From IMG/VR virus record IMGVR_UViG_3300044612_002367: a stretch of 64,000 nt of DNA, one strand, 5' to 3'. This DNA is from an uncultured virus (IMG/VR IMGVR_UViG_3300044612_002367). Lineage: Duplodnaviria > Heunggongvirae > Uroviricota > Caudoviricetes. Made by a program: the position numbers and the translations under genes. Position 1 is the stretch's first letter; the number at the start of each line of letters is the position of its first letter. This document shows positions 13,907 through 63,100 of the stretch, piece by piece. The notes beneath the pieces were generated by a model that saw only the letters and a program-made list of their open reading frames with translations, was not told the DNA's origin and ran no database searches.

Positions 13907-14098
13907 TTATTCCTCTAAAATATCAGGACAATAATCTTTAATCTCATTTTCCAAAGGCTCATTATCCATTAAGTCTTTGCTATCCACCAATCTTTCATAA
14001 GCAAAAGAATACAAGGTATCAAAATCCATATCATCTAAAAGCCTATAAGCATAGATCCGTATAATATCATCACGATTCTTGTCAGTAATACTTATCAT
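13907..14098 (-). CDS. Small acidic hypothetical protein (paralogue 2)
   Basis: TDKNRD.II..YA..L.D.MD.D.LY.FAYE.LV.SKDL.DN.PLENEI..YCPDIL shared with 13455-13646. Confidence 0.8.
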   Translation of the reverse strand: MISITDKNRDDIIRIYAYRLLDDMDFDTLYSFAYERLVDSKDLMDNEPLENEIKDYCPDILEE

Positions 14099-17100: not shown

Positions 17101-17234
17101 ACTCACCATAACTCAAACGTCAGCCTCCGTAACCGTATGATACATTATCGAGTTTCCGTTGTCAAGACTTGAGTTGTTTTTTATTCGAAATGGTGTATAA
17201 TAACTTAGCAAATCAATTTCAAGGAGTTTCGATT

Positions 17235-17735
17235 ATGAACAAGTGTCACAACTGTAACAAACAAACACAAAATCCTAAGTTTTGTTGTAGATCATGCTCA
17301 GCATCTTTTAATAATCATAAATATCCTAAAAGATTTCCTTCTCCTAGAGATGTTAAATGTTTATTTTGTAAAAATGAATGTAAAACTAATAAAAATAAAT
17401 ACTGTTCAAAACAATGTTCAATTAATTATAGGCAAAATCTAAAAGATATCATCATACAAAAAGACGGTTTTGGTTGCGGCCATTATCACAATAACACTAT
17501 TAGAAAATATCTAATAAGAACTCATGGCAATAACTGCATGATTTGTGGTTTAGACGCCACCAATTGGAATAATAAACCAATTACTCTTATAGTGGATCAT
17601 ATAGATGGCAAATCAAATAATAACAAATTAAATAATTTACGGATAGTTTGTCCAAACTGTGATTCTCAATTACCAACTTATAAAGCAAAGAATAAAGGTA
17701 ATAGTAGCAGATCGTACTTTATTGTTCAAAAATAG
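17235..17735 (+). CDS. HNH homing endonuclease with N-terminal Cys-rich repeats
   Basis: FCCRSC and YCSKQC repeats, then CMICG...LIVDHIDG..NNKLNNLRIVCPNC; AAGGAG RBS at 17221; the only plus-strand gene in the tRNA cluster. Confidence 0.9.
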   Translation: MNKCHNCNKQTQNPKFCCRSCSASFNNHKYPKRFPSPRDVKCLFCKNECKTNKNKYCSKQCSINYRQNLKDIIIQKDGFGCGHYHNNTIRKYLIRTHGNNCMICGLDATNWNNKPITLIVDHIDGKSNNNKLNNLRIVCPNCDSQLPTYKAKNKGNSSRSYFIVQK

Positions 17736-17888: not shown

Positions 17889-17933
17889 GCTGACTACAAC
17901 CACCCTGACCGAATCCGTAGGATTAGGCAAGAC
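17889..17933. repeat. Motif B copy 3
   Basis: gctgactacaaccaccctgaccgaatccgtaggattaggcaagac; abuts the tRNA-Ser 3' end. Confidence 0.9.
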
Positions 17934-18019
17934 GGAATCTGAGGGATTCGAACCCCCGGAGGATTTTAACCCTCGGCTCTTTAGTAAAAAGCTGCCTTCA
18001 ACCACTCGGCCAAGATTCC
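17933..18019 (-). tRNA. tRNA-Ser(ACU)
   Basis: Acceptor GGAATCT/AGATTCC, G discriminator, long variable arm, anticodon loop TTACTAA. Confidence 0.85.
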
Positions 18020-21315: not shown

Positions 21316-21705
21316 TTATGAGAGATAACCCTCACAACCCAAACCAGCAAGATCACGCAGCAACTTTTCAGCCGCCTCGGGAGTCTTGAGAGTAATACTC
21401 TGCTTCGCACCAGCAGAGGCAGGAACGAACTTGTCGTACTTCCAACCGCCCACCAGAGCATCCGTCCAATCCTTGCTTTCCTTCAAGCCCCATCCGGTGT
21501 GGAGTCGAATAGCCTTTATGCAAGAGATACGATTGTCCAGATTCATTCCGTTCGTGATGGTAATGGTACGATTCTGGTTCACGCCCAACTCCATCTCAAA
21601 GGCGTTCACGATCTTGTGATACAGTTCGACATCGTTGTTGTATGCCCAACTAGTAGCCAGATTCATAGCCTCACGAACACTCAGTTGCAGATTAATCATA
21701 TTCAA
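21316..21705 (-). CDS. Protein with ribosomal protein bL12 (L7/L12) C-terminal-like domain
   Basis: RISCIKAIRLHTGWGLKESKDWTD..EAAEKLLRDLAGLG resembles bL12 CTD KIxVIKxVRxxTGLGLKEAKxLVE. Confidence 0.7.
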   Translation of the reverse strand: MNMINLQLSVREAMNLATSWAYNNDVELYHKIVNAFEMELGVNQNRTITITNGMNLDNRISCIKAIRLHTGWGLKESKDWTDALVGGWKYDKFVPASAGAKQSITLKTPEAAEKLLRDLAGLGCEGYLS

Positions 21706-24428: not shown

Positions 24429-24716
24429 ATTTTTACCCTTTAGTTAGAACTACCACACACAGCACTATGCTTTTGCTCATTCAACTTTTTCATAATCAAA
24501 GTTGTAGTAGTCTCTTTCAACTCCAACACCGTATCAAACTTGATCTTATGCACAGCCTTATTGGTACTAGGAGTTTCAGCCACAGCACAAACCAGAGTAG
24601 CATACTCCATCATGATACTAGCAATCTCGTCACGAATTGTATGATTACGAGTCATTGTTTTTCTCCTCTTTGGTCTAGTCTACACTATCTTTTATCGGTT
24701 GTCAAGAGCACAAAAT

Positions 24717-25166
24717 TTAGGCTGCACCCGCAAGAGTCTTTCCATTAGAATAATACTTATTCCGGCGAAGTTTCTTCATCATGGTCTTTTTGGTGAAAGT
24801 CTTAGTCTTGATACCGTTAGGGGTGATATAGACCAAAACAATCTTATCAAAATTCTTAGTCTTGATATTCTGGAACTGATAAAAATGCCGACCACTAGGC
24901 AACTGACGAGCCAGAGAAGACTTGACTTCAACACGTTGACCATCAACCAGCATATCAAAAGGATTGGTTCCCCCGATATACTTAACCCTCCGACCTTGCA
25001 TAATCAACTTATCCCTAATCATCTTCTCCACAATAGCACCACGATGCTGATTGTTCAGTCGAGACAGACTATAGGACAAACGGCTCTTTCGCACAGAAAA
25101 CACACTCTTGCTGCTCAGTCCCTTGATTTCCCCCAAAACCCGATTCATGTGCTTCAGCGTGAACAT
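24717..25166 (-). CDS. Putative PD-(D/E)xK endonuclease
   Basis: G...E helix followed by PFDMLVDGQRVEVKSS; very basic. Confidence 0.6.
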   Translation of the reverse strand: MFTLKHMNRVLGEIKGLSSKSVFSVRKSRLSYSLSRLNNQHRGAIVEKMIRDKLIMQGRRVKYIGGTNPFDMLVDGQRVEVKSSLARQLPSGRHFYQFQNIKTKNFDKIVLVYITPNGIKTKTFTKKTMMKKLRRNKYYSNGKTLAGAA

Positions 25167-25269
25167 TATCGTTTTCCATTATCTTTGAGGTTAGTTGATC
25201 ATCCCTTATGTAAGCCTCATTATATGGATTATCGGCATCTTGTCAAGAAAAATTTGTCGAAAAAAATAA

Positions 25270-25313
25270 CTGCCATTTTGGCAGTTTTCGCGGCCCGGCT
25301 GCCAATTTGGCAG
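25270..25313. repeat. Motif A copy 8
   Basis: ctgccattttggcag-ttttcgcggcccgg-ctgccaatttggcag. Confidence 0.95.
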
Positions 25314-26143
25314 GCCAAAACCCCCTCAAAAGAGGAGGCTGGCCAAGCCGGTCTTCATCAATACATCCCCCATAGGAAATCGACGAACATTAGTAGCACG
25401 TTCAGCATAAAACTGTCGAATCTTACCATCAAACGTCTGGCAAGTTACCAGATGATGAGTACGCTTAAAGATTGAATCGTGACGACGATAACTGCTAGTA
25501 CGATCCAACTTTCTAATAGTCTCATCGCTCAACGTATAAACAGGCTCAATAACCTTAGCAAGAATCCTTTGACGCTCACCATGAAAAGGCTGCTCATAGT
25601 CAAAATTATATACTTCACCAACCTTAGCAGTGCTAAGACTACCATGAATGCCGTTGTAAACATTCAAAGCGAGAATAAACAGCAAAGCAGCAATACCAGC
25701 AACAGCAGCAATACCAATATAAACCATATCGTTCATTATCAAACCCTTTCGTTATTGAAAACCTTTTCCACCAGTATACTCTATTATCGACACTTGTCAA
25801 GCCGCCGCTTTAGAAAAATTTTCGCTCCAAAATTCGGCAACTTCATGCAGATTCACAGCACTATCATTCCATGCCACACCATCCGGTGTTTCGTATGCGA
25901 TAGCAGAGTTGATATCCATCTCTCGCAACCTAGCCTTAAAATCATTATAGTTTTGACATACGGCCGCGAATTCGTTCAGACCTTCATCATTACTAATCCA
26001 TAAACAAACATTCCAAGTCTGATAATTAGCGTAGCCGTTATAGGTTCCGTCAGGACTCATTTTTCTACCCTTTCAATTAGAGGTATGTCCTAAGTATATC
26101 ATCATAATCGGCAAATGCAAGAGGGAAAATTTAGAAAAAATGT

Positions 26144-26187
26144 CTGTCATTTTGGCAGTTTTCGCGGCCCATCTGTCATTTTGGCAG
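26144..26187. repeat. Motif A copy 9
   Basis: ctgtcattttggcag-ttttcgcggcccat-ctgtcattttggcag; supplies the TGA stop of ORF 26176-26433. Confidence 0.95.
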
Positions 26188-26737
26188 ATAGGTTATTTCT
26201 TGTCCATTTTCAATCATAGCGGAGTATGCTGCTATCCGCTTATCCTTTTCACGTTTTTCGATTTGATGATCGGTTTCGCCGATCTCTAACGAATCACACT
26301 TGCGTTCAAGATCGGCCAATGAAACACTATCGGTACGATTATCACGAAAGTTTTCGGGCAGCCAATCATTAGGAATCAGAATAACATCCTTGATAATCCG
26401 ATCAAACTCTGCGAGCAATTCATAACCGTTCATTTTACTTCCTAATAAAAAGTGCTTCGATCTCTAAAAACCAATGATAGCCTATAAATGCAAAAAACAC
26501 AAGAGCAATCACGACTTTTTTATCCTTTCGGTCAATCCGCTTGGATGATGAATCACGATCCATCCCTCGTCCGCTTTTTTAATCATTTCCGTTGGCGTTG
26601 GGCCTTTACGATTCTTCCAGTATTCTTTCGCTTGAATCCTAGCCAAATAAGCATCATAATCGTTTTTCATTGTTCTCTCCTGATGAATAGATTATACATT
26701 TAGAATCGGCATTGTCAACAAAAGAAAACGGTTTTTC

Positions 26738-26782
26738 GCTGACTACAGCCCATATAGCCAAATCCGTAGGATTAGATGGGAC
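26738..26782. repeat. Motif B copy 5
   Basis: gctgactacagcccatatagccaaatccgtaggattagatgggac. Confidence 0.9.
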
Positions 26783-27080
26783 AGTCAGGAGACTCCCATC
26801 CAAATTGCATTTTCCAGACAGTAATCATAAAACATATCGTTCAATACTTCGTAGCAATTGTTTTCCGTAATCCTACGACGATCAAAAGTGGACTCACACT
26901 CGGCATACAGTTTGCCATCAACGGTCAAAATCAGACTCACATTATGGCTTTCATCAGCCCAAATTTGCTTCAGCGTATCACGAATCTTAGTGGTGTCCAT
27001 TTTCTTCTCCTTTGCTTTTGTTATCGGTATTTTACCAACAAACTCTTGAATGTCAAATAAAAAAAATGAAAATATTTAGT

Positions 27081-27124
27081 ATGCCATTTTGGCAGTTTGG
27101 CCGCGGCGCCCGCCATTTTGGCAG
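27081..27124. repeat. Motif A copy 10
   Basis: atgccattttggcag-tttggccgcggcgc-ccgccattttggcag. Confidence 0.95.
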
Positions 27125-27341
27125 GCTAATTATTAGTTAATCAAATAGGTTACAATACAACCAGTGATAAAGCACATAAAAATAAAAATCATCTTCTCTT
27201 TATTATTCATATTATTCCTTTACTGGAAAAACAAGATCATGAACAAGATAAGAACCAAAAATGCCAACAATAAATCCCACACTCACACTCACCCAATTTA
27301 TATCGAACATCCGTGTTCCCTTTCTTTAGTTTAGTTTTTTC

Positions 27342-27386
27342 GCTGACTACATCCACCACATCCAAACCCGTAGGGTTAGGTGAGAC
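27342..27386. repeat. Motif B copy 6
   Basis: gctgactacatccaccacatccaaacccgtagggttaggtgagac; palindrome changed symmetrically to AACCC/GGGTT. Confidence 0.9.
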
Positions 27387-27609
27387 AGTCACCACCCGTC
27401 GCTAATCGCCTGTCTCTTTTGAGAACCGCGAGTACGCAGTCTCTTGGTTCGGTTGTCGTGCTGCCCGCTACCAGACCGATGCTCGCTATGGCCGTGTCCA
27501 ATTTCCCACAACGGACGAACATTCAACTTCACGACGATTTTCTTATTCTGCTTGCTCATAACTTTATCCTACCATAGTTTATCGGCTTGTCAATACGAAA
27601 ACTTTAGAT

Positions 27610-27625
27610 AGCAAATATCGTGCCA
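27610..27625 (-). promoter_or_regulatory. sigma54 -24/-12 element
   Basis: Minus strand TGGCACGATATTTGCT matches TGGCACG-N4-TTGCW exactly. Confidence 0.7.
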
Positions 27626-27663
27626 ATTTGGCAGAAATCGCGGCCCGCCTGCCATTTTGGCAG
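27620..27663. repeat. Motif A copy 11
   Basis: gtgccaatttggcag-aaatcgcggcccgc-ctgccattttggcag. Confidence 0.95.
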
Positions 27664-28969
27664 TATTATTACTCACTCAGTAATATTACAATATGTTAGA
27701 TTATTAACCAAAATACTCTTGATAAGCCCATCGTCCTGCTTAATTACAAGCATTTCACCCTTAGCGGGATTAGTAGATGGCCAACTCCAAACATCAATAA
27801 TAACACCAGTAAAAATACGACCATCTTTACGCTGACCAGTGAAACGTTTGTTGTAATGTTCACGCATACTCATTATTACTTCTCCGCTCCTACCACCATA
27901 CCATCCATGAAAGGATAACTCTTGTCGTCAATCTTTACAAACCACTCAAAATTCTTCTGGTAAACATATCGCGGACTATACTGGTTGATTCTATCCTTAG
28001 TGGTCAGAGTCTGCCATCCACCACTATTCAGAGTGTAGGTATTGTCGGGATGAATCTTCACAACGTAGGTACTGTGCAGCATAATCCCCACGCTACCATC
28101 GCTCAGAATTTCAGCGTAGGTATTGTTTCCAACCTTGCGACGATTAGCATTACGCTTGCCACGAACCATAGATACCGCTTCGGAATGAATCATTTTCAAC
28201 GCTCCGTATAGTTAGTGAGTTCGTTCTGATTGAAGATACCGTGCTGGCCGTTTTCGTCAACTACAAAAAACACAATCAGCGGCTTTCCGTTCTCGATGAT
28301 AACGTCGAAAGTATTCACGTGAACCTTTGCACCACTCAGCGTCGTAGCGTGAATCACAACGTCGGTAGTTGAAGCGTTCATTTGTTTTTCCTCTTTCCTT
28401 TATATCGACATTCTACAGGGGAAACTTTAGTTGTCAAGAGCAATTTTTGCAGCGTCCAAAATATGCTGAACGGTCAAATCTTTGTAGAGAACCATTGGCA
28501 ATTCCAAAATCTTTCCATAAGACTTAGGATCGTCAGTATCCCTAAGAACCGTAATATCTTTACGATACGCACCCGTATAATCCACATATCGACGCAAAAC
28601 AAATTCAACGTCTTTTGGATCATACACGCCCTGCTGAAAACCGTCATAATAAACTTTAAATTTCATATTTCTTTCTTCTACTTTCTAAGTTCAGCACGTT
28701 CCCTAGCATACCGATACATGGCACGTTCGTCAACCATGAATCTTTCTACACCCTTCAAATCCTTGAAGTTCCAATGGTAGGTGAGAACGTCAGACCTGAC
28801 CATCCAATGGGCTTCGATGTCCGAAGTCTTTTTCAGCGTATATCCCAGCTTGTTCAGTTCTTTTGCAATCGTCTTGCTATTCATCTTCTTCTCTTTTTCT
28901 TTCTCTTATATCGGTATTTTACTCATCAAACTTGAGAAGTCAAATAAAAAAAATGCCTAAAATCTTTGC

Positions 28970-29013
28970 CTGCCATTTTGGCAGTCGCCGCGGCCCGCCT
29001 GCCATTTTGGCAG
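28970..29013. repeat. Motif A copy 12
   Basis: ctgccattttggcag-tcgccgcggcccgc-ctgccattttggcag. Confidence 0.95.
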
Positions 29014-29440
29014 TTACTTTTTTGCGGCCACCTTTTCCTTTATCATTTCATTATAAAGTTTACTTAGATTTTCAACGTGAGCAATCGCTCTATTAGTTTC
29101 CCGATTCATTCGTTCCAAGGCTTTTTGATAATTACTAATCTTTTTCTTTTTCATAACTCACTCAAAATCCACAAAAATAACCTGATGATAACCGCGAGGC
29201 TTAATAGTAAGGCCAGTATCATAATCGAACGTATCAGCCTTTACACCCGTCATACCGGCCAAAGCCTTAGCCTGTCGAGTGATATTGTGTTGAGCAGCCG
29301 AGCGGCTAATAGTAAACTCGTGCCGATTCACCCAACCATAATTAGGCTCACCACCAAAAGTATCAGTATGAGTTACAATAACCTTCATCATCTTATTATT
29401 CCTGTTAGTAAAGTAAGAATCGATCCAATTTTTAATATCT

Positions 29441-29773
29441 TCAGTCTTCATAATAACCGTATCCATCATCACTGTGAAAATCCTCACGATCATCACCATA
29501 ATAACCATAATCCTCATCGGTTCCCCATCCCGCAGAAGTCATCGCGGAATCGTGGTCGCCATCCATACTATCATCATACGAATCATCCCAATCGTTCTCC
29601 TCGTTTTCCTCATCATAACCTTCATCTTCATTCATTTGATCACGGATTTCATCCAGTTCATTTTCTGGCAAACCCCAGAAATCATTGTGGTCATCATAGT
29701 TCTCATCTTCGATCATCATATCATCATCCTCCATAGAGTTATCGGGATCATACAATGGATCGGGGTGACTCAT
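29441..29773 (-). CDS. Extremely acidic 110-aa protein
   Basis: MSHPDPLYDPDNSMEDDD...DHDSAMTSAGWGTDEDYGYY; AAAAGGA RBS before the ATG at 29773. Confidence 0.75.
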   Translation of the reverse strand: MSHPDPLYDPDNSMEDDDMMIEDENYDDHNDFWGLPENELDEIRDQMNEDEGYDEENEENDWDDSYDDSMDGDHDSAMTSAGWGTDEDYGYYGDDREDFHSDDGYGYYED

Positions 29774-30073
29774 GACTTGTTCCTTTTCAACTAACGTACC
29801 ATACTTCGCCGCTGTCGTCAACCATTTCCTGCGGCTCGAATTCTTCCACAATGCCCACAACATCTGCCCAATCCCAAAAATTCACTTCCACGTTAGGATC
29901 GTCAATCGGCTCCACCATCGGCTCGATCATGCCCTCGTCGGCCATAGCGTTAAGAACAGCGTTCACTTGATCGAAATCGTGAAACATGATCTTTTCTCCG
30001 TTGTGATGCTTTGATTCTACATTAGGTATCGGCAATGTCAACTAAAAAAATTAGCGGCAAAAATTATTTTTTG

Positions 30074-30089
30074 TGGCACAACATTTGCA
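30074..30089 (+). promoter_or_regulatory. sigma54 -24/-12 element
   Basis: TGGCACAACATTTGCA (GG-N10-GC). Confidence 0.7.
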
Positions 30090-30093
30090 CTGC

Positions 30094-30137
30094 CTGCCAT
30101 TTTGGCAGCCCGGCCGCCCCGCCTGCCATTTTGGCAG
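30094..30137. repeat. Motif A copy 13
   Basis: ctgccattttggcag-cccggccgccccgc-ctgccattttggcag. Confidence 0.95.
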
Positions 30138-31073
30138 TTATCCTTTTAGGGCCATGTAACTAATAGTAAAACAGAATAGTAACAATAATAGTATACTACT
30201 ATTAGTCATCACCCCTCCAAGAGAAGGGGCTAACTTCCTCACCGCTAGCCATGATAGCAGCATACTGCTGTGCTAAAGCCTCTTTACGTTCAGCATTACC
30301 AGGCTTACCAACGGGGATAATCATAGTATCATCGCCACCATTGTAGCGAGGATCGACCTTTTCGACCTTACGCTTGCCAATCTTTCGCAAAGCCTTGCGA
30401 TTGAACTTTAATACCTTTTCACTACGAATCGGCCCGTATGTACCATCGGCCAGACTAGGCTGGTGGGGAATTGCAATTCCAAGAAAGCACGACAGGATAA
30501 CACGGTCAGCATCAATCAGAATTTGTGGCTTACTCATTTATTTTTCTCCAAAGGATGATGGATTGTAGAAACCTATAGACTACCTTGCAACCCCCCGAGT
30601 TAGGTAGCAGACACAAATCCTGCATCTTCCAACTTCAAGCATGAAACACAATCTTGAAGGTATAGACTACGATACTTCATCGTGCCAGTAGGATAATGCT
30701 TCATGGCTACAGTGAACATATGTCCCTTTGGCAAATCACGAACCAGAACAACTCGACCATCGTACTTTTTACCGTTCTTATGATCGACAACTACCATATC
30801 ATTCACGCTGACCATTGTAGTATTCTCTTTCTTTCTAGGGTTAGTTGCTATCGGGATCGGTAGGATCGGAAACATATTCCAGAATAGGGGTACAATGCTC
30901 AAGGCAGCATGAGCAAATATCATAACCCCTAATTTCATCACCACAGCAATCGGACGTAATCACTTCAATCATTCTCATTTCAATTCTCTCTTTCCTTTTC
31001 TCTTATATCGACATTATACATAGGCATACTTGAATGTCAACTAAAAAAAATCGTAGATAAAAAATATTTTCTT

Positions 31074-31116
31074 TGGCATGATATTTGCTATGCTAGAGTT
31101 TGGCATGAGATTTGCA
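31074..31116 (+). promoter_or_regulatory. Two tandem sigma54 -24/-12 elements
   Basis: TGGCATGATATTTGCT (31074-31089) and TGGCATGAGATTTGCA (31101-31116). Confidence 0.7.
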
Positions 31117-31120
31117 GCGC

Positions 31121-31164
31121 CTGCCATTTTGGCAGTTGGCGCCCGCGGCCTGCCATTTTGGCAG
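31121..31164. repeat. Motif A copy 14
   Basis: ctgccattttggcag-ttggcgcccgcggc-ctgccattttggcag. Confidence 0.95.
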
Positions 31165-31754
31165 TTACCCCTACTTCAGGGGGTATGATCCGATCCAGTC
31201 GATATGTTGAATCCACTCCCTAGCATACGGCGTACCATGCCTTTTCCGAATCAAACGGAGTTGAGAAGCCAACTCCCCTCTATATGATGGGTGCGATCCC
31301 CTGCGAACCCATTCACCGATCCACTTATTCGCGGGAACCGCCACTAGCATACTAATATCGAAAAAGTTCATCGTAAACCCTTTATTTGGCCCCCATTATG
31401 GGGGAGACTATAAGTACCCTAATAACTGCTAGTCTATCATCGACCAGGAAGGGCCGGAAGAGCAAAATCGCTCATGGCATAATTGTAGCACTCATCGAGA
31501 TAGACACTAGCGTGCTTGCCAGTATCCGACAACTTGACCACGACAAGCGTACCTTTCATGCCCATACTCTTGACATTCTGAATCTGACCGATGAAATTCT
31601 TATCATCACGATTCCGAATCGCGGAAAAATACATACCGGGAACAGGCTTCATCATCACTCACTCTCTCTTTCTTATACCACGATTATACATTAGGTTATC
31701 GGCAAATCAAGAAAAGAAAATCAGAAAAACTTTCTGAAATTTTTCCCATCATTT

Positions 31755-31770
31755 TGGCATACAGTTTGCT
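31755..31770 (+). promoter_or_regulatory. sigma54 -24/-12 element
   Basis: TGGCATACAGTTTGCT (GG-N10-GC). Confidence 0.65.
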
Positions 31771-31977
31771 GGTAAACTACCTATTTTGCCCAGGGGGGTT
31801 TTTTTGTTTATCTTACCTAGATCATCCAGTATATCTAAACCGCGGGGTGGTCCAAAAATAGTAGGCACCACCATATATAATTGGCCAGTTTAATAGCCAT
31901 TTTCCCCATATATAAAAAAAAGAAGAATCCTGCTGCCAGGATCCTTCTTATAAAGAAACTATCTTTTAAACAATATT

Positions 31978-32196
31978 TCAGGCTAATGATACATCATCAA
32001 CCTTCTTATTCTTACATGGTCTGCCCCTGGGCTTTGTTACCCCTAGTTTTCGTCTTTGTCTCCTGATCATAGCTTGACTAATATTTTCCCCCGTCATAGT
32101 TCCTAACTTAGAAGCCAACTCTTTATCTGCTAAAATATTAAGATTATCCTTTATAAACTGAAGTTCAGCATCTGTCCATTTCTTGTATGTGGCCAT
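31978..32196 (-). CDS. Small HTH/Myb-like DNA-binding protein with AT-hook-like tail
   Basis: KKWTDAELQFIKDN...DKELASKL...IRRQRRKLG, KPRGRP; AAGGAG RBS. Confidence 0.6.
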   Translation of the reverse strand: MATYKKWTDAELQFIKDNLNILADKELASKLGTMTGENISQAMIRRQRRKLGVTKPRGRPCKNKKVDDVSLA

Positions 32197-32401
32197 AATG
32201 TTCTCCTTTTGACAAAAAAAGTGTATCAACTACTATATAGTATAGCTTGACCAATTTCCCGCAAGAATAAAATTATGAACACCACCAGTCTTGTACCATG
32301 CATATTAGAGGTAAAAGCTTCAGCCTCTTTACAAGAACAAATAGAAAAAGAACTATTAATTAATGATTCTAATAAAAGCATAGCAAATTTAATAGAAAAT
32401 T

Positions 32402-33046
32402 ATGAAGAAAAAGAAAAACCTCAAAACCAAAACCAAAAAATCCAAAAATAATATAGTTCCTGATGATCAGTTTTTACAAGCTGTTGATAATATTAGCAAA
32501 AAATTAGCCTATAAATTTAAATTTGGATATCATGATCATTCTGATATGAAGCAGCAAATAGCCATATTTGCCCTAGAAGGATTAAAAAACTATGATGGAA
32601 TAAGACCCCTAGAAAACTTTTTATGGACCCACGTTAGAAATCGACTGTTTAATTATAAAAGGGACAACTATCAAAGACCCAACAAACCCTGCTTAACTTG
32701 CCCACTATACGATCCTAATAATCAAACTTCTAAAAGTCAATGTTCCAAATATACTGATAAAAGTGAATGTGATTTATATGCTGGTTGGAGTAAAAGAAAT
32801 ACTACTAAAAAAAATCTAGTATATTTAACGGGAGTAGAGGATTTTTCATTGGTCCCCAAAACACATTCTGTTAATTTCGATAGTTTAGTATCAAACAAAG
32901 AGATACTAGATTTATTAGACTCTGAACTAAGTGGAGAAGAAAGAGAACTATATTTAAAGTTTAGGGGAGGGGCTAAAATAAATAAATCTGATATGAATAA
33001 ATTATTAATTAAAATACGATATATATTAGGAACCTCTAATGGCTAA
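32402..33046 (+). CDS. Phage sigma-70-family-like transcription factor
   Basis: Region-2-like DMKQQIAIFALEGLKNYDGIRPLENFLWTHVRNRLFNYKR, Cys insert, LSGEERELY region-4 start; first large gene of the late module. Confidence 0.6.
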   Translation: MKKKKNLKTKTKKSKNNIVPDDQFLQAVDNISKKLAYKFKFGYHDHSDMKQQIAIFALEGLKNYDGIRPLENFLWTHVRNRLFNYKRDNYQRPNKPCLTCPLYDPNNQTSKSQCSKYTDKSECDLYAGWSKRNTTKKNLVYLTGVEDFSLVPKTHSVNFDSLVSNKEILDLLDSELSGEERELYLKFRGGAKINKSDMNKLLIKIRYILGTSNG

Positions 33047-33854
33047 AAAGCGCGGACAGCTAGCTTTAGATGAAGAAAAATTTATACGTGATAATGTTAA
33101 TACTTTAACTTTAGAACAAATAGCAGACAGTCTCAACAGAAATACTGCCCCCGTCCAAAGATATATAACAGAGCAAAAATTATATACATCATCAGAAGAA
33201 AAAAATGATTATGATATATTAAAACGTAAACTACACAGCAAAAATTTCTGGCCAGAAATACAAAGACAGTTTGATGAAGAAAGCGGAGAGTTAAAATATT
33301 TTGAGGATGTATGGATCAATTTAGTTAAACAATTTAGAGAAGATGTTCTTGCTGCTGAAGAATTACAAATCAAACAATTTATTACCATTGATATTCTTAT
33401 TAATCGAAGTATGAAAGAAAGAAAACGCCATATTAGTGAAACTGAAAAATTACAAAAATTAGTAGACAAAGAATATGAAAAACCCGACGACCAACGGGAT
33501 ATTCCTAAATTGGCCAACCTTGAAACTCAACTAAATTTTTCCCGTAATAGCATAGCTAGTTATACTAATGAGTATACCAAACTGCTTAATGAACAACAAA
33601 AGATTAGTAAAGATCTTAAAGCCACAAGAGAGCAAAGAATCAAAAGAATAGAGGATGGTAAAAGTAGCTGGGTAGGTCTAATAAGAATGCTAGAAGATGA
33701 AGATATTAGAGAAAAAGAAGGTCGTGAAATTGAAATTATTAATATGGCTACAAATAAAGCTAAAACTAAATTATATGATTTACATTCTTATTCTGACGGA
33801 TCAATAGATAACCCTATACTAAATTGTGAATCGGCAAAATCACCAGATGCGTAA
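33039..33854 (+). CDS. HTH plus coiled-coil protein, candidate terminase small subunit
   Basis: N-terminal LTLEQIADSLNR HTH, helical body, upstream of TerL; function inferred from position. Confidence 0.4.
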   Translation: MAKKRGQLALDEEKFIRDNVNTLTLEQIADSLNRNTAPVQRYITEQKLYTSSEEKNDYDILKRKLHSKNFWPEIQRQFDEESGELKYFEDVWINLVKQFREDVLAAEELQIKQFITIDILINRSMKERKRHISETEKLQKLVDKEYEKPDDQRDIPKLANLETQLNFSRNSIASYTNEYTKLLNEQQKISKDLKATREQRIKRIEDGKSSWVGLIRMLEDEDIREKEGREIEIINMATNKAKTKLYDLHSYSDGSIDNPILNCESAKSPDA

Positions 33855-53194: not shown

Positions 53195-54102
53195 AAACCA
53201 GAACATTTACTGCTATAATCAATGATAAGGAAGTTACTTTTCTAGTTAAGTCTCCATCTTTAGCTGATCAAAGAGAGGCTACAAAGGTATATAATACTGC
53301 TTTTAGTGATGCTTTGAAAGCTAAAGCCGTGGTCAGGGCAAAACTAGATGATGTTCTGGTCGAACAAGGCTTATGGGACGATAAAAAACAATTCGAATTT
53401 ACGGCTCTACAATCTAAAATTCTAGAAAATGAAAGAAAACTAGCTAAAGGTGGTATACCACTACAGGAAGCTAAAAAGATAGCCTTGGAAATGAGAAAAG
53501 AACGAGAAAGTCTTAGAGATCTAATTTCGGTCAAAACCAATTTAGATACTCACACAGCAGAAGGCCAAGCTGATAATGCTAGATTTAATTATTTAGTTTC
53601 AGTATGTACGGTGTATAATGATAATAAAAAGCCATACTTCCCAAGCTATGATGAATACCTTAACAGGTCATCAGAATCGGTAGCCATATTAGCAGCACAA
53701 AATCTTGCTGGTATGTTGTATGGTTTGGAAAACAATTATGAAGATAAATTGCCAGAAAACAAGTTTTTGAAGCAGTATAAGTTTATTGATGATAAATTAA
53801 GATTAATAAATAAAGATGGTAAGCTAGTTGATGACTCGGGTAGACTAATTGATGAAAATGGTCGTTTTATTAATGAAAAGGGAGAGTTTGTAGATAAAGA
53901 TGGTAATCTTGTTAGCGATAGCGGAGACTATGTTGTAGACTTTAAGCCATTCCTAGACGATGATGGTAATCCGGTTATTCCAGAAATTAAAACAGTTGAG
54001 ACACAACAGATAGAAGATAATAAGGAATCAAAAACAGATGAAACTACAAAGGAACCAGAAACATCACCCCCTCCAACGCCTGTGCAGAATCCACAACCAT
54101 AA
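53191..54102 (+). CDS. Possible tail assembly chaperone
   Basis: Precedes tape measure; 7-aa (L/F)(I/V)(N/D)xxG repeats near the C-terminus. Confidence 0.5.
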   Translation: MKTRTFTAIINDKEVTFLVKSPSLADQREATKVYNTAFSDALKAKAVVRAKLDDVLVEQGLWDDKKQFEFTALQSKILENERKLAKGGIPLQEAKKIALEMRKERESLRDLISVKTNLDTHTAEGQADNARFNYLVSVCTVYNDNKKPYFPSYDEYLNRSSESVAILAAQNLAGMLYGLENNYEDKLPENKFLKQYKFIDDKLRLINKDGKLVDDSGRLIDENGRFINEKGEFVDKDGNLVSDSGDYVVDFKPFLDDDGNPVIPEIKTVETQQIEDNKESKTDETTKEPETSPPPTPVQNPQP

Positions 54103-54129
54103 TTTATTTTCTTTTTTAAAGGATCAATT

Positions 54130-54169
54130 ATTCCTCATGGGATGTACTTCCCCTGGGGAATTTTTGTTT
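54130..54169 (+). terminator. Possible terminator/attenuator before tape measure
   Basis: ATTCCTCATGGGA..TCCCCTGGGGAAT hairpin followed by TTTTGTTT. Confidence 0.5.
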
Positions 54170-54186
54170 GTATAGGATAATAAAAT

Positions 54187-57100
54187 ATGTCACAATCATT
54201 TAACCTTACTGCTCAAGTAAATTTACAGGCACCAGGTAATCTTAAAACTGTTGTTGCAAAAATTAAGAGAGAACTTGGTACAGTTTCCGCTGACGTTAAG
54301 CTTAATATTAGTTCTCAGTCAGCAAGGTCTATTGATAATGTTAAGTCTAGATTAGATGCTCTTAATGCTACTTTAATTCAGGCTAGAACTAACACCACCT
54401 CATTAGATTTAGCGCTGAGGAGTTTGTCTACAACATTATCCAGCATACAATCCAACACTGTTAAAGTAGATTCTTCTTTCGCTAGAACATCTTCATCAGT
54501 TAATCAAACTTCCAAATCAATCAAAGTTGCTACAACAGAAATGGAAGAGTTTGGTAAGCAATCTGCTTTAGCTGTTAGAAGATTCGCCGCCTTTAGTATA
54601 GTTACAAGTGGTATTTTTGCTTTGGTAAATGCTGTTAATTCAGGCTTTAAGGCATTTATAGAGTTTGATAAAGAACTAGTTAAATTACAACAAGTAACGG
54701 GTAAGGGTGAAATTGGATTACGCTCTTTAGAGAAAGAAATTACTAAGTTATCCACAAGCTTAGGAGTTAGTAGTCAAAGCTTAATGAGTGTAGCATCCAC
54801 ACTAGCTCAAGCTGGTCTGAGCGCTGAAGACACTAGAGTAGCATTAGAAGCATTAGCAAAAACTGAACTAGCTCCTTCGTTCGATAATCTAGCAGATACT
54901 ACAGAAGGTGCTATTGCGGCTATGAGGCAGTTCGGACTAGAATCTAAAGATTTAGAAAAAGCACTAGGATCTATCAATGCCGTGGCTGCTGCATTTGCAG
55001 TAGAATCTAAAGATATTATTGCTGCTATTCAGCGTACTGGCGGTGTTTTTGCTGCTGCTAGTAAAGGAGTTAGTGAGGGTACAGATGCTCTTAATGAGTT
55101 CGTTGCTGTATTTACTAGCGTTAGAGCCACAACTCGTGAAAGCGCAGAAACTATCGCTACTGGTTTAAGAACTATCTTTACAAGATTACAAAGAACAAAA
55201 ACTATCGACCAACTAAAAGACTTTGGTGTTACATTAACAGATCTAGAAGGTAAGTTCGTCGGTCCATTCGAAGCTGTTAAGAGATTAAGTGCTGCTCTAA
55301 ATCAATTAGATCCTAGAGATCTTAGGTTTTCTGCTATAGTAGAAGAACTTGGTGGATTTAGACAGATTGGTAAAGTAATTCCACTTATTCAACAGTTCGC
55401 CACGGCACAAGAAGCTTTAAAAGTTGCCCAAAAGGGTCAAGGAAGTTTGGCTGAGGCTCAGATCACAGCACAAAAATCACTGGCTAATCAAATAGCAAAA
55501 GTGAGGGAACAATTTTTAGCATTAGTTAGAGATATAGGTAAGAGTCAATCATTCCAGGGGTTGTTCAAAATTGTAACCGGACTAGCCAGCGGTTTGATAA
55601 GTTTAGCTAGTGCATTCAAACCTATCCTTCCTATTCTAGCTATTATGGGAGCTATCAAAGGAGTATCTGCAATAAGACAATTTGGCAGTGGTTTTATCGG
55701 AGGCATAAATAAAGGTGGTGGTGCTAAAGCTGTTGGAGAAAATGTTGGTAGTACTCTTAGTGGCAATAAAGAAAAAGAAAAAGCAGAAGCTACTAGTAGA
55801 GCTGCCGACGCTATAAGATTAAACACAGATGCTCTGAAAAGTTTAACAACTGCTGTTCAAAGTTTGGATAGCACTATCAAAAGCAGAGGATCTACCACAT
55901 TAGCTGGTGGCGGTAAAGTATATGGTTTTCAAAGTGGAGGTATAGTACCAGGAAGCGGTAGAGGAGATAAGGTACCAGCATTACTAGAACCAGGCGAAGT
56001 AGTAATGAACAGAAATGCTGTTAACAAATATGGTGCTGGGAATTTAGTAGAGATGAATAAATCCCGATCTACAAAAGGAATAGCTCGTGGAGCACGAAGT
56101 AGATTTAAAGAATTAAGTCCTGAAGAGTTATCTCAGCTTAGTACTGAAGATATGATTAAATATGCTAAGGCTCAGGCGCGAGAGATATTTAGCACTGGCG
56201 GCTCTGGCATGGCTACTAGTAGTAAATTCATACCAGTTTCTCAAGAAAGAATAACTCCAGAGCTAGAAAGTAGCTTAACATCATACTTAGGACAAAAGGG
56301 ATTTTGGAAAGAAATGGTGAGTCCATTTGGTCAACCAAATAAATCTGTATCTAAAGCTCAGAGTAGATTATCTAGAGAACAAGCTTTACAGCAACAAAGT
56401 GCTAGAATGTCTGATGAAGTTGCTGCTAGAGGTCAACAATGGGCTAGTATTAGGAGTGGATCATCTATAGACAATTATTTATTAGGAGCTTTAAAAGATC
56501 CTATACTTTCTGACTATAGAACAGTACGAGGTGGAGGATCTTTATCTAAGGCTTTCCATAGCACACGATTACGAAAAGCTGTAAATGAAGCTTTAGATAA
56601 TTATGATGATTTTGATTATTCACCGGGTAGTATCGATAAATTAGTCAGCAGTTTTGCTGCTAAAAAATTTGCCTATGGTGGTGTGGTTCAAAAACTTAAA
56701 GAAGGAGGCATAACCAAGGAATTACAAAAACAGATGATCGAAGCTGGTGGCTATGAAAAATTTATTCAACAAAATATGTCGCCTAAAGATCCCGACCTAT
56801 ATGAGTTTGGTTTGGTTGGTCTTAGATCTGGAACAAAATCAGCCTCAAATACACCAGTAGATCGTGAGCTGGGGAATGGTAAAAAGGCTAGAATCCATAT
56901 AGGATTTTTACAATCAGCGAATGATCCAAATTTTGCAGCTAATATAGAAGAGGATATTAATAAAAGTTTACAGAAAACAATAGTCAAAACAGCTGGTATT
57001 TTTGGACAAGATATAGATGCCTCTATAAGCCCACAAACAAAAGATCAAATATTAGAAGGCGCTGTATTAAGTAGCGCTGTTGGTAGCGTTTTTGAATCGG

Positions 57101-60100
57101 CACTACAGATGATAGGTGCTCCATACATAGATAAAATAGAAGCTATTAAGTCTATAGACTTTCCTTTTGGATTGGGTTCTAGTTCTAAATTATTTGGTAG
57201 TAACTTTCCAAGTAATATACCAACAGATGCTACCAGAACTATTGCTGGTAGTGGTAAAGGCGTGTCAGATTTTCTTGGTCAAATTAATAGATTTGTTGGC
57301 GCTGTGGATTCTGGTAAATTTACTGATAAACTAGAACCTCTGCCAACAACTCAAGCACTATCGGCACGAGAGATGGCTGATGCTTTAGTTAGATCAGCTA
57401 AATCTAATCCCGATAACATATCTAGAATCAACGGTGTCTTACAGAGATCATCAATACCTGGTATAATAAGAAAACAGAATACAAAACGTACAGATAGTCT
57501 TGTTGATAGTTTAGCACGAAGTCCTGAAACTATAAAAATGCTAGAAGCCGCGGGATTTGGACCAGCTTATCAAGCTTCAGGTGGATTAATTAAAAATTTT
57601 GCAATTGGCGGGTTGGCAGATGCTACAGAAGAAATGTCGGGATTGATGAGAGGACTTTATGGAAATAGATCTTCAGAAAATCAGCAGTCTCAAAAGAAAG
57701 CAAAACAGTTTGGTAAAATAGCATTAAGAAATGACGGATCGGATATCACAGCAACATACTTTAAACAAGGAGCGGATGCATTATTGTCTGGTTCTGAGAT
57801 GAGATCTGGCCAAGTAACAGCATCCAAAATAGATAGCAATTTATATGCGGTGCGCTTATCAGCAGCAACTAAGGGATACGGACCAAGACTTTATGACGTG
57901 GCCATGGAAGCAGCCACAGAAAATGGAGGTATGTTAACTTCTGATCGTAATACTGTTAGCGGTGATGCTAAAAAGGTTTGGGAATACTATTTTAAAAATA
58001 GAGGAGATGTTAAGAAAACACCACTAAAACCAGCTAACTGGACCAAGAACCAAGCAAATATTGATCCTAAACTATATGGTAATGAAGATACGTGGCCACC
58101 AGCTACTGATCCAGCATGGGTACTACAAAGTGGATATAGTAAGAGTCCAAGCTTAATTAATGATTCTAATAGTGTTGTTAGAATGGATAAACAAGCACAG
58201 AGTAGTGCATTAACAGCACTACAGTTTTTCCAATCCAAATCTATGAACTTAGCTAGTGGTGGCTCATTAAACAAAACAGTGCCAGCTATGGTTAGCAATG
58301 GCGAAGCGTATGTTCCACCAGAAACAGCAAAAAAGATTGGATATGCTAAATTAAATAGGATGAATCAGGCCGACCGCAATGGTATGAAAGGTTTTGCCAG
58401 TGGCGGCATAAGCGTATTTAAAGGATCTGGTAGTGGTACTAGTGATAGTATAGGTCCTGTTGGATTACCAGAAGGTAGCTTTATAATAAGAGCAAAAGCT
58501 ACTAAAGCACTACGATTAAATAAGGGTGGTAGTATTGGTAGACCAAGAAGATTTTTTAAGGGTGGAGTTGCTGACAAAGATGTTACTAGAGCACAAGGAA
58601 CAGTATTACAAGACTTAAATCAAGCAGTATCATCATTCGAGTCTATACTAAATATTTTGGGTCCAGGAATAAGAGACTCTATTCTTGATGGATTTATGGG
58701 AATAGAGGCCGTCGCCTCTGGACAAAAGCAAAAATTAATGAGTGGTGATATATTTGATGATACTACTCGTGGTAGGGCCAATGCGTCTGGTAAATCATCT
58801 AGTATTGGTTTGCAAATTTTAGGATCAAATGTAGCAGCTACTACAGAAACAGTAGCACACGAAGCCGGACATTTAGCCGACTACTCTTTGGGTGGAAAAA
58901 CAGGACAGATGGCTAGTGACACAAAAGGCACTTTCCAGTTCGCTTTAGTGGAAGTTGTTAAAAAACAAATGGAAGAAGCATTTAAAAAAGCTGGTAAAAG
59001 TGCTGATGATATAGAAAAATATTTGGCTAGCAATAAAGAATTATTTGCTGAATTTTTTGCTAAAGCGTCTCCAGAAGTAAAAGCTATTATTACATCAACT
59101 ACTGATGCTAAAGAAGGAATGAAAGCATTAGCTGATCATTTAGGAGATGCTGGATATACATATGCTGGTTTAGAAGCTTCTGATATTGATCCTTCAAGAT
59201 CTAAGCCAAGTCAAAAATCGTCAAGTAATGTTGTTAATTCAATAAAATCCACCGTATCTTCAGTTTTTAGCGGTATGAAGAATAAAATCTTCGGAGGTGG
59301 TTCGGGTTCAACCCCGCCAACTGCTCCGCCAAGTACTCCTTGGCCATCAAGTATGATGAAGTATACAACACAGGCCAAAGTTGCGACAAAAGAAAAAGAA
59401 GACGAAGAAAATGATAATCAATTTATGGAGTATAGAGCAAGGAAAGAGGGGATTACCACTGGTGCTTTTAAATTAAATGTTGCTAGAAGACTAGGTAAAT
59501 CAGCCTATGAAATAAGAGATAATTTTGCTGGTCGTAAAGAGGAAATGAAATATGAATTAGCTGGTAAACAAGATAGATTAAGAAATATTGGATCTACAAT
59601 AGCTACAGCTAAATTTAAAGCTGGTGGATCAGACGCTGAAGCAGAAGCCGCTAGAACCCAACTAGCCGACGCTAACTCTAGATTAGCAGCTGAAGCCGAA
59701 AATATAGCTCAAGAGATGAGAAGCCTTAATCCAACACTTGACATGGATCAAGTTACTAAAGCATCAAAAGAAATAGCTGATTTGTTAAGTGAAGGCAAGC
59801 TTAAAGAAGCGCAAAAGGCTATGGTCGATGCTATTGGAGATGTTCCTGGTCCGGCTTTAAGTATGAAGATAGCTATGGAGCAAATGTCCAAAGAGCTAGG
59901 AATTTCAGTCGAGATGTTAGAGCGCAATTTTGGAAAAGGTAAAGGGGCAAAAGATGTTGAGCGTCAACAATTTGTTCAAAGTAGAGAAGGCCAAAGATTT
60001 GGAATGTTAGCTGAATTTGCTCCTGATGCTTTGGCTAAATTTAGTGGATCTAGATTTGGTAAAGGAGTTGGAGGTGCAGCAGATTTTATTAGTGGCAAGG

Positions 60101-63100
60101 GTGGTAAATTTAGTCAAGCTTTTGGAAAAATGGGTGGACTAACAGGTTTGGGTGGGGCATTAGCTGTTGGCGCCGATCAATTTGAAAGAAATGTTACTAT
60201 TACTGATCCTAATACTGCTGGTGTGGTGGGAGGCATAGGTGGTGCCGGTACTGGTTTAGCTAGTGGATCATTATTAGGTGGCCAAATAGCTGGTCCTGTA
60301 GGAGCGCTAATTGGTGGTGTTACTGGTGCTCTGGTAGGAGCTATTAATGGTGCCGTTAATGCTTTCCAAACTAAAAAATTAGAAAATAATCTTAAAGCTC
60401 TAGACAAAGCTAGTACTGATCTTGAAACAGCGTTTAAAAAATTGGAATCTGTTTCTAATGATGCTAACAGAGCAGAAGCTCAAAGTAAACTTAATGCTAA
60501 AGTTGGAGCAATAACCAATGTGGCTGGTCAGGCTAATTTTGGCGCTGGTGGCACAGCACGAACTATTACAGAAACTTTAAGAGCATTAGATCCTACAGGT
60601 TTAGTTGGAACATTTACAGGACAAAAACAAGAAGGCGAAGCTAGAGATGCTATGGTATCTGGTCTTAGTCAGCTTACTTTAGATGCTGATAGATTAGGAG
60701 CAAGTCAACTCAATAAAGCTAGTACAAGTAGCATAACAAGCTTTTTAGATAGCACCAAGGGAATGGATGAACCAGCTAAACAATTAGCTATGGCTAGAGC
60801 TAATCAAGGTTATCAAGTTATGGCTGCTGGTGGAATGAAAGAAAATGATATTTTCTTAAGTAAATATATGGCTCAACAAAAACAACAAGGTAAAACATCA
60901 GAACAACTTAGTAAAGAATTATCTGATCCAAAAGCTAGAGAAAGAGCTATCCAGTCTGGTAAGGAATTATTAGCGGTTGAAGGAGAAATTGCTCTTAAAC
61001 AAGCTGTGTTGTCCAGAACTGCTAAAGATTTAGCTGTTGCTACAGAACAACTACTAGATGTTTATAGAAGAGCCACAGCTAGTTTAGATAGATATAGTGC
61101 TGAACTAGAACAGTTTGAAAATAATGTAATGACTTCAGCAGATGATATTAGTGGTAATCCAAGAATGAGATCTGTCAATCGTCAGAATGAACAGGTCTTA
61201 GGAAATATTAGCGCTTATAGTATGGATGAAGTTAAAACAGTAGCAGAACAAACAGCTAGTTTAGCTGGTGGTGGAGATGCTGGTAATAAGCTTAAGAATG
61301 AAATTATTGGAGCAAAAATACTTAAAGATGAACTGCCAAAAGCTTTAAGAGGAGCACAAAACGGAGATGTTGACGAAGTTTTGGATAAATTAAAAGAAAG
61401 TTTTGGTTTAGCTGGAGTAGAATTTTCAGATTCTTTAAGAACTCAACTATCAGATACTTTAAGGTCTAAAACAGAAGGTAGACAAGGAGTGGGTTTGGGC
61501 GATATAGCAGATGATCCTTCTATACTAGAGAATATAACAAAAGGTAGAGAGGAATCTCTTAAATTTGCACAAGCATTACAACAAAAATATAATGACACTA
61601 TTCAAACAGCTATTAATCTTCAAGCTAAATATAATGAAAAAATTGGACAAGCAGAAGAATACCAAAGAAAAGCTGCTAGTATCAGAATTAATGCCGAATT
61701 AGAGCTAGCTAGTGCTTTGGGTCGCGCTCCTACACTAAACGAGCTTAATCAGCCATTCGATCAAGAAGTTAAGAGTATGACTTCTGGATTAGTAGCTGGT
61801 GGTACTACTGATCCAGCAGCAATTTCAGCAGCGATGACAACAGCTCAACAAAACGCTAACGATATACAGCAAAGATTAGATAATCCAATGACAGCATATG
61901 CTGGTATGGATGAAGCTCAGAGAAATGAAGCAATAAAAAATGATATAGCGGCGTTAGGTAAACAAAAAAGAGCATTAGATAATGGTAGTAAAGCTTTAGA
62001 AAAATTAGCTAATGACGGTACTAAAGCAGCTAATGCATTGGGCAAAATTAAAGAAAGACAACAATTAGCAGATAATGCTAGAGGAGTAGCTAGAAAATTA
62101 TTAACATCTGATAGTGGCGAGCTGATGGATTTTGAACGACAGATGAGTGCTTATACTAGAACGGTTAGTGGTCAAGCTTCTAATCAAGAACTAGGTAGTT
62201 TACAATTTAGACAAGATGCTTTTAGTGGACTAGATAATATCAAATCTGTGCTTCCTGAAAATATTGCTAAACAGATGGAGGCTAAGCTAACACGATCTAT
62301 GATATCAGCTAACCCGCAAGGTCAGCAAATATTAAATAGTGTTATTGGTATGGATAGTGAAGGAAATCCAATGACAGTAGATCAAAGTTTACAAATGGCC
62401 GAACAAGGTAAAGATCCTGTTCAAGAACAATATATTCAAGCATATAAAGCTGCTACAGATGCTCAAGCAGCAGCTGCTGATGCTTTAGCTAATAAAGCTT
62501 TAGAAGCAGCAAAAATATTAGCAGATGGATCTGCTCAGTTGATGGGTGATCTTAAAGCTGGTGTACAAGGCAAAGTTGCTGAATTAGGACAAGTTTTACC
62601 AAACGCTGAAGCGGCCGCTAAAGCTGATCCTAAGCCAGAAGTTAAGACCGAGGAACCAACAGGTGACCTATCAACAGGAGCAGCATCAGTTAATACTGTA
62701 GATATTCCAGGATTGTCAGAAAATGTTGATGCTAGTAAAAATAACACCAACGCTCTTATTAGCTCTGCATTAGCAATGGCTGAATTAATGGCAGCTATAT
62801 TTATTTTGAAGAAAGCCTTTGATGCTTTTGGTGGCGGCGGCATCAGAGATATGATAGGGAATGTTTTGGGTGGAGGTAGAGGTAGGAGTAAACGCAGAAG
62901 AAGAAAAGGTAAAAAATCATCTGGTTCGACAGGTTCATCGGGTTCATCTCCTACGGCTGGTAAAAAGAGAAAGACTAAAAAAACCCGAGGCGCTACTACA
63001 GCCTCTGCTAGTAAACCTTCTACTACTAAACCAAAAGTAAGAGGTAAGAGTAGAAAAGGGCGAGGGGTATTGAGTGGTGCTTTATCTATGTTTGGATTAG

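Follow-up and report, generated by a model that had tools for sequence, protein, structure and literature searches.

Conserved, helically phased sigma54-type sites beside the early promoters of a large uncultured tailed phage: a proposed variation on known sigma54 behaviour

In Escherichia coli, sigma54 sites repress the sigma70 promoters that they overlap, at argT, chaC, mdfA and patA, and the C of the −12 element is kept in them (PMC4551910). At other, inactive consensus sites of E. coli the holoenzyme is parked; most of these are scattered inside genes and some lie antisense in intergenic regions (PMC4591121). At Vibrio qrr1 a −24/−12 promoter is accompanied by the activator site of LuxO, TTGCAWWWTGCAA (PMC10162802). 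Accounts of phage transcription hardly mention sigma54; the one published phage case found is P015 of Pseudomonas phage YuA, a forward sigma54-like promoter whose start site has been mapped (10.1101/2023.10.13.562163). No published report of reversed or phased sigma54 sites in phages was found, in a search outside which most subscription journals lie. The present analysis concerns five sigma54-type sites, TGGCAY-N4-TTTGCW, in a stretch of 64,000 nucleotides (the window) of the uncultured virus record IMGVR_UViG_3300044612_002367. Judged by their pattern and distribution, the sites are real and conserved and appear to be a variation on known sigma54 behaviour, for which a function is proposed.

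An earlier reading of the letters alone (the sequence-only reading) had placed one site on the minus strand at 27610..27625 and four on the plus strand at 30074..30089, 31074..31089, 31101..31116 and 31755..31770, and all five were present there. In 100 dinucleotide shuffles the mean number was 0.02 and none reached five. Written as TGGCA-N6-TTGC, the pattern has five matches in the window, against 0, 0, 1, 0, 2, 0 and 0 for the seven other spacings from N4 to N11. Each site has GG at −24, GC at −12 and the context TGGCAC...TTGC, and the sole change within them among the variant rows listed for aligned contigs, 31116 A>T, keeps the consensus. The sites are located at cassette boundaries. Four of the five are reversed, as had been claimed, because the local open reading frames (ORFs) and sigma70-type promoters run leftward; site 27610 is forward, in the direction of the early genes.

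The sites stand among leftward promoters and a palindrome, motif A. Fourteen motif A pairs (TGCCA-W3-TGGCA twice, 29-bp period) were counted in the window between 14748 and 31163, upstream of leftward TTGACA-16-TAKAAT promoters. The pairs at 27621..27662, 30095..30136 and 31122..31163 adjoin sites. The predicted overlap of site 27610 with motif A proved to be a shared TGGCA, which serves as its −24 element and as the inner half of the box at 27621. Its −12 GC lies 4 bp from the −35 of a sigma28-type promoter (27580..27606, minus strand, TAAAG-N15-GCCGATA) and 17 bp from that of the interleaved sigma70-type promoter (27566..27593, minus strand, TTGACA-16-TAGGAT), whose −10 is 54 bp from the site. 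The same fusion of −24 and motif A recurs in loci L014, L044 (twice) and L058 (twice). Reversed site 30074 is 69 bp from the −10 of a promoter at 30014..30041 (minus strand, TTGACA-16-TAGAAT, spacer containing CCGATA). Sites 31074 and 31101 form a tandem with a 27-bp period; the promoter-proximal member is 70 bp and the distal one 97 bp from the sigma70 −10 of the promoter at 31013..31040 (minus strand, TTGACA-16-TATAAT, then GTCGATA). Sites 30074 and 31101 do stop 4 bp before a 15-bp CTGCCA-TTT-TGGCAG box of a motif A pair. The last site of the block, 31755, is 81 bp from the −10 of the promoter at 31683..31710 (minus strand, TTGATT-16-TATAAT, spacer containing CCGATA). A degenerate box read over this site, at 31747-31760, departs from motif A at three positions of its left half and is absent from the orthologous sites shown; most such sites are preceded by a T-run, and the box is probably no more than that.

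The stack of sigma70-type and sigma28-type promoters noticed earlier is a fixed arrangement of one promoter class: in relatives, TAAA or CAAG stands exactly 16 nt upstream in 103 of 154 GYCGATA elements that follow a −10. The GYCGATA type resembles a sigma28 promoter. From 26691 to 31040 the best-matching leftward sigma70-type promoters all have a spacer of 16 bp, not 17, a possible signature of the host.

The distribution of the sites was followed in related phages with two anchors. With the sigma-like protein encoded at 32402..33046, 80 IMG/VR loci were retrieved, which hold 219 sites to the left of the sigma-like gene (158 reversed and 61 forward) and three to the right, duplicates included; any other spacing gives at most 13 matches on the left. 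Five long records, of which four are rated complete, contain 27 strict sites, 26 of them no more than about 10 kb from this gene. The second anchor was a single-copy, conserved non-coding boundary element (31793..31899, plus strand), found in 55 distinct loci. To its left stand 182 sites, with a density peak in the first 1.5 kb, and to its right none, so that the element is the right limit of the sites; each of the seven other spacings gives 1-4 matches in place of 182. Because the sites are confined to the cassette block, their density is not similar genome-wide, the comparison that the sequence-only reading had proposed. Among loci with at least 3 kb, 31 of 35 carry a site, and these 31 comprise six with motif A, 16 with another paired palindrome (motif B) and nine with neither. 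Motif A is thus dispensable, since relatives exchange it and the sites persist in the 25 loci that lack it. The sites are a conserved trait of these large uncultured phages.

Some arrangements in relatives are of interest in their own right. Head-to-head sigma54-type pairs with their −12 ends a few bp apart occur in L043, L053, L056, L063 and L314-L333; the viral collection has 20 such stretches, and the window has none. The cassette heads of motif B phages (L063, L043, L027, L068) often carry a CCTTAC-N6-GTAAGG inverted repeat between site and promoter. Far from the cassette block, opposite sigma54-like patterns overlap with a 2-bp offset in G193 (162411-162427) and G194 (13931-13947).

With the key letters left free, the sites of the relatives have GC at −12 in 151 of 154 cases and GG at −24 in 128 of 129. 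Their logo, TTTGGCAYRRNATTTGCT, agrees with the published sigma54 consensus (PMC12316311), and the match claimed in the sequence-only reading holds base for base. The reader might instead be another TGGCA-preferring protein of host or phage, or the reversed sites might be relics of promoters or of motif A halves spread by shuffling. This alternative would fit the TGGCA that sites and motif A have in common at the same position, and the contigs in which reshuffled cassettes are joined at their heads. It is rather improbable, given the exact spacing, near-invariant GG and GC and variable middle in motif A phages, motif B phages and phages with neither, and given the textbook enhancer-promoter layouts in the same block of relatives. 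No phage sigma54 DNA-binding domain was found in five virus records. Neither was a phage-encoded AAA+ activator in these five, nor in any of four further records; weak PF00158 matches in four of the five are presumably of RuvB type, judging by the two sequences that were read.

The relatives separate the sigma54-type sites into two classes. In some of them forward sites without a sigma70 promoter are followed by a ribosome-binding site (RBS) and a start codon and preceded by repeated GCAAAATGC boxes, which resemble the LuxO site of qrr1 (PMC10162802). A scan of the collection for this layout of enhancer and forward site gave 68 loci with 46 distinct sites. Of these distinct sites, 29 have an RBS and no downstream −35, and in 29 the box lies 73-74 or 83-85 bp upstream, positions one helical turn apart. 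The enhancer-dependent layout raised in the sequence-only reading is therefore in use among relatives, in this form. The 11 nt after the GC contain on average 9.0 A/T in the 29 forward promoters and 6.1 in 118 reversed sites, which are not independent of one another; the reversed sites of the window have 4, 7, 3 and 7. Four of the window's sites face motif A or the boundary element, and 27610 shares its gene with sigma70- and sigma28-type promoters. None of the five passed the filter for a forward promoter (RBS and gene downstream, no sigma70 promoter), and no GCAAAATGC box was found in the window. The window's sites thus form a second class, without the LuxO-like enhancer, mostly reversed and with a less meltable start region that often lies under motif A.

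The two classes meet in the genes that they accompany. Ten of 30 first genes behind forward promoters match one of two ORFs of the window for short proteins, at 30841..30978 and 30600..30815. Nine of the 30 queries match the former, with E values of 0.0004-0.009 against 33 kb, and a homologue of the latter (E 3e-6) is itself the first gene of a forward sigma54 promoter. Closer relatives among the carriers of forward promoters are L021, L027, L040 and L065. Four genomes with forward promoters have a distant homologue of the sigma-like gene and many more sites in the same block, and no activator domain was found in these four. The family appears to use the enhancer-dependent route of the host for the same kind of gene, and sigma54 is the likely reader of the sites because some enhancer promoters of sister phages drive probable homologues of window genes.

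The position of motif A bears on whether the window's own sites could be fired. An A box stands 2-7 bp beyond the end of 35 of 58 reversed sites, and five of seven forward sites are joined to one through the −24 element; an exact scan for the junction of A box and reversed site found 93 viral DNA stretches. Neither placement is an enhancer position. The nearest upstream pair for 30074 and 31074 is 940-1060 bp off, against a usual activator range of about 70-150 bp upstream of the −24 element, though action over a longer range is conceivable. The proposal that motif A acts as an enhancer has little or no support in these placements, or in the 25 of 31 site-bearing loci without the motif. A related explanation keeps the sites as activatable promoters: a host activator of the NtrC family, bound about 1 kb off at the motif A pair belonging to the following cassette, would fire antisense transcripts that shut the early cassettes, with 27610 as a forward promoter. 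Motif A has the 5-3-5 palindrome form and the 13-bp CA-W3-TG layout of the LuxO site TTGCAWWWTGCAA (PMC10162802), A-like boxes stand upstream of forward sigma54 promoters in L021, L221 and L265, and in 41 of 49 loci the last site is reversed, toward a G/T run for which a hairpin fold was obtained in 36 of 59. This explanation is nevertheless unlikely. Melting regions are poor, the start site lies under motif A, and A-type boxes at enhancer positions were promoter-like in one of eight distinct hits and in one further locus. Sites also persist without motif A, the G/T run is kept without a stem in 23 of 59 loci, the window's copy did not fold under the hairpin criterion, and the phasing to leftward promoters would be left unexplained.

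The phasing was measured after related loci had been collapsed and with distances above 111 bp excluded, and the remaining clusters are still of common ancestry. Promoter-proximal reversed sites stand 68-70, 79-83, 89-93 or 100-102 bp from the leftward −10, with a phasing strength R of 0.72 for 58 cluster-distance pairs from 34 clusters. For forward sites the distances are 54, 63-64, 73-76 and 85-86 bp and R is 0.90 (18 pairs, 14 clusters). In both tests p lies at the floor of 5e-5 set by 20,000 uniform draws. Reversed and forward sites differ by about half a helical turn, and the phase fits sigma70 and sigma28-type promoters alike (R 0.72 versus 0.68 for reversed sites, 0.91 versus 0.91 for forward sites). 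The distance from motif A to −10 is phased with R 0.78 when no site intervenes (n = 27) and 0.29 when one does (n = 24), and in motif B phages the site is phased better to the −10 than to the palindrome. The helical phase belongs to the site and not to the palindromes, because the phase of motif A drops in this way when a site intervenes.

Our preferred reading, to which we give a probability of about 0.44, is that the sites hold non-initiating sigma54 closed complexes that modulate the adjacent leftward sigma70- and sigma28-type promoters. It builds on what was observed: the pattern of the sequence, the confinement of the sites, their orientation and phasing, and how they differ from true promoters in relatives. 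Host sigma54-RNA polymerase would bind the five motifs and form a stable closed complex at each, in a fixed helical phase with the strong promoters of the first early cassettes and 50-100 bp upstream of them, and the docked holoenzyme would act as a DNA-bound regulator of these promoters. Forward site 27610 should occlude the sigma28-type −35 and the upstream region, because it overlaps them. The reversed sites and the promoter stand back to back, with an A-tract between them that they share; the sites would compete for this tract or reshape it. The likely effect would be a damping or timing of the first early genes that follows the sigma54 state of the host, and the effect at the reversed sites could be either damping or helping. 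Sigma54 binding, the complexes staying closed and the sign of the effect are steps that we infer.

The arrangement agrees with the repressive sites of E. coli (PMC4551910) in that a sigma54 site with intact −12 C stands beside an active sigma70 promoter and no activator would be needed, and 27610 resembles their overlapping classes. It differs in that a phage carries the sites, that they recur from cassette to cassette, are mostly reversed, phased and beyond the footprint, and that they are known from sequence. With the inactive sites (PMC4591121) it shares consensus sites, some antisense and intergenic, at which holoenzyme is parked, parking being in our case what we infer; unlike those, the window's sites crowd into 4 kb and keep set positions relative to other promoters. 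The −24/−12 pattern is that of qrr1, and sister phages have the whole layout with a LuxO-like box; unlike qrr1 (PMC10162802), the window's sites have no upstream enhancer in range, four of five have no downstream gene, and a palindrome covers the start site. As with YuA P015 (10.1101/2023.10.13.562163), a phage appears linked to the sigma54 route of its host, there through one forward, active promoter, here through a reversed, phased set at early cassette heads.

Several points weigh against the proposed modulation by parked complexes. Only 27610 overlaps the footprint of the sigma70 holoenzyme, with 17 bp between its GC and the −35. For the four reversed sites the −10 is 69-97 bp away; placed at about −66 to −80 relative to the sigma70 start, or still further off, they lie outside the usual footprint of the polymerase, so simple occlusion as described for E. 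coli (PMC4551910) is inapplicable to them. The start region of 27610 is AT-rich (9/11), 4 of 35 relatives with at least 3 kb have no site at all, and ten of the 14 motif A pairs, as well as most promoters beyond 5 kb, go without one. Tandem and head-to-head copies exceed what one promoter needs. The TGCCA of reversed sites occupies the position of the TGCCA of the proximal A box (59-60 bp); because these positions coincide and the clusters share ancestry, the phase could be inherited.

Two further functions had been suggested for the sites. As a DNA sponge they would titrate sigma54 holoenzyme, perhaps with an activator at motif A, and mute a stress or surface regulon of the host. Both orientations and the tandem and head-to-head copies would suit this, replication would multiply the sites, and predictions for several phyla put chaperone, motility and secretion genes under sigma54 control (PMC12316311). 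Five sites are few against the 135 mapped and more than 250 estimated in E. coli (PMC4591121), and a sponge needs neither phasing nor confinement to 6 kb, which makes titration quite unlikely. A roadblock against read-through between cassettes would be at home at cassette boundaries; it is very improbable, since the effect was looked for in E. coli and not seen, only 3 of 85 genes with internal sites being down-regulated, no more than chance (PMC4591121), and it too leaves the phasing unexplained.

The boundary element contains a G6T7 run, GGTGGTCCA at 31846 and then AATTGGCCAGTTTAATAGCCA, and in 51 of 59 loci, the window included, 47 bp separate the start of its T run from GGTGGTCCA. The last site faces the G/T run 24 bp on and is 88-91 bp from the element in 9 of 49 site-bearing loci, among them the window (91 bp). 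Of 80 contigs, 19 end within 700 bp to the left of the element and none to the right, and two begin 5 and 20 bp before it. Its GC-rich core resembles a cos overhang, and the element is possibly a packaging or genome-end signal; repeat-rich cassettes that break assemblies could give the same pattern of contig ends. On this basis the sites could form a loading platform at a genome end or origin, where closed complexes clamp the first-entering DNA as a ratchet or end protection, or where the last site primes or opens the element. The density peak beside the element with no site beyond it, the distance of the last site, the contig ends and the terminase operon that comes next would fit. Such a platform has little likelihood: the element is only a candidate terminus, base skew follows gene strand and gives no origin signal, and promoter phasing would not be needed. 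Rightward transcription toward the sigma-like gene, also proposed at first, was rejected, the last site facing the G/T run, the boundary element and an opposing ORF (31978..32196), and the gene having a sigma70-like site to itself, at 32209.

The window comes from a large tailed phage. A leftward block in it, made up of small genes and tRNAs, borders on a rightward operon. This operon is headed by the sigma-like gene (32402..33046, plus strand; similar to sigma70 region 2, Pfam E 0.0036, below the cut-off), with terminase and portal behind it. The ORF between the block and this gene (31978..32196, minus strand) encodes a small basic protein with a weak D5-like PHROG match. On the other side, the first gene behind the promoter at 31013-31040 encodes a Cys-rich protein of 45 aa (30841..30978, minus strand), followed by the small ORF 30600..30815 (minus strand; Pfam DSRB match, start assigned from the RBS). 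An RNA family search gave no credible match.

Outside these regions, a tRNA-Ser call at 17933-18019 has the anticodon ACT, unusual for bacteria, and an HNH-like ORF (17169-17735) lies inside the tRNA cluster on the opposite strand. A cassette protein at 21316-21705 has a domain like the C-terminal one of ribosomal L7/L12 (Pfam E 1e-4), and its homologue in G002 passes the Pfam cut-off. G002 (L091-L096), a complete relative, also encodes a sigma70 region-4 protein, ClpP, an actin-like protein of the volactin family, a PARG-like protein, a ferritin-like protein and an intein-bearing ribonucleotide reductase. Over 24500-33500, related lake phage contigs join the cassettes in other orders, with several joints at motif A/promoter heads, which suggests cassette shuffling. 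The region 54102-64000 is probably one very long ORF that runs past the window edge, because the skew stays of the plus-gene type and the first complete plus-strand ORF is listed only at 63704.

All 24 public runs listed with the stretch are lake-water metagenomes, none of them an RNA run, and the nearest named relatives of the terminase are Bacillus phages (24-29%). A host search gave six genome matches, labelled bacterium, Alphaproteobacteria (twice), Flavobacteriales and two archaea, which are probably mis-binned contigs. BLAST of the module or the tRNAs against plasmids and named phages gave short or distant matches only. A planctomycete host was not confirmed, two planctomycete plasmids having no motif B, no sigma54-type and one CCGATA-type match in what is too little DNA. 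A host-side search for enhancer and promoter found nothing in 41 genomes from each of the phyla of G009, G008 and G007.

What the analysis adds is the contrast between two classes, a candidate enhancer, the helical phasing and the boundary element. In this widespread phage family both classes of sigma54 site occur in one block and can be told apart, and one can serve as a natural control for the other. Should the reversed sites act in cis, they would show that regulation of a neighbouring promoter by a closed sigma54 complex can reach beyond its footprint, which would bear on the many silent sigma54 sites of bacterial chromosomes. A wider interpretation, which we hold to be doubtful, is that three host sigma factors (sigma70, a sigma28 type and sigma54) are wired to the first cassettes, with parked sigma54 as a helically phased factor for the promoter of another sigma. 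If it is true, the same genes switch between being fired from an enhancer in sister phages and being tuned by parked sigma54 in the phage of the window, and the phage would read the developmental or stress state of its host from DNA alone, at the first-entering end of its genome.

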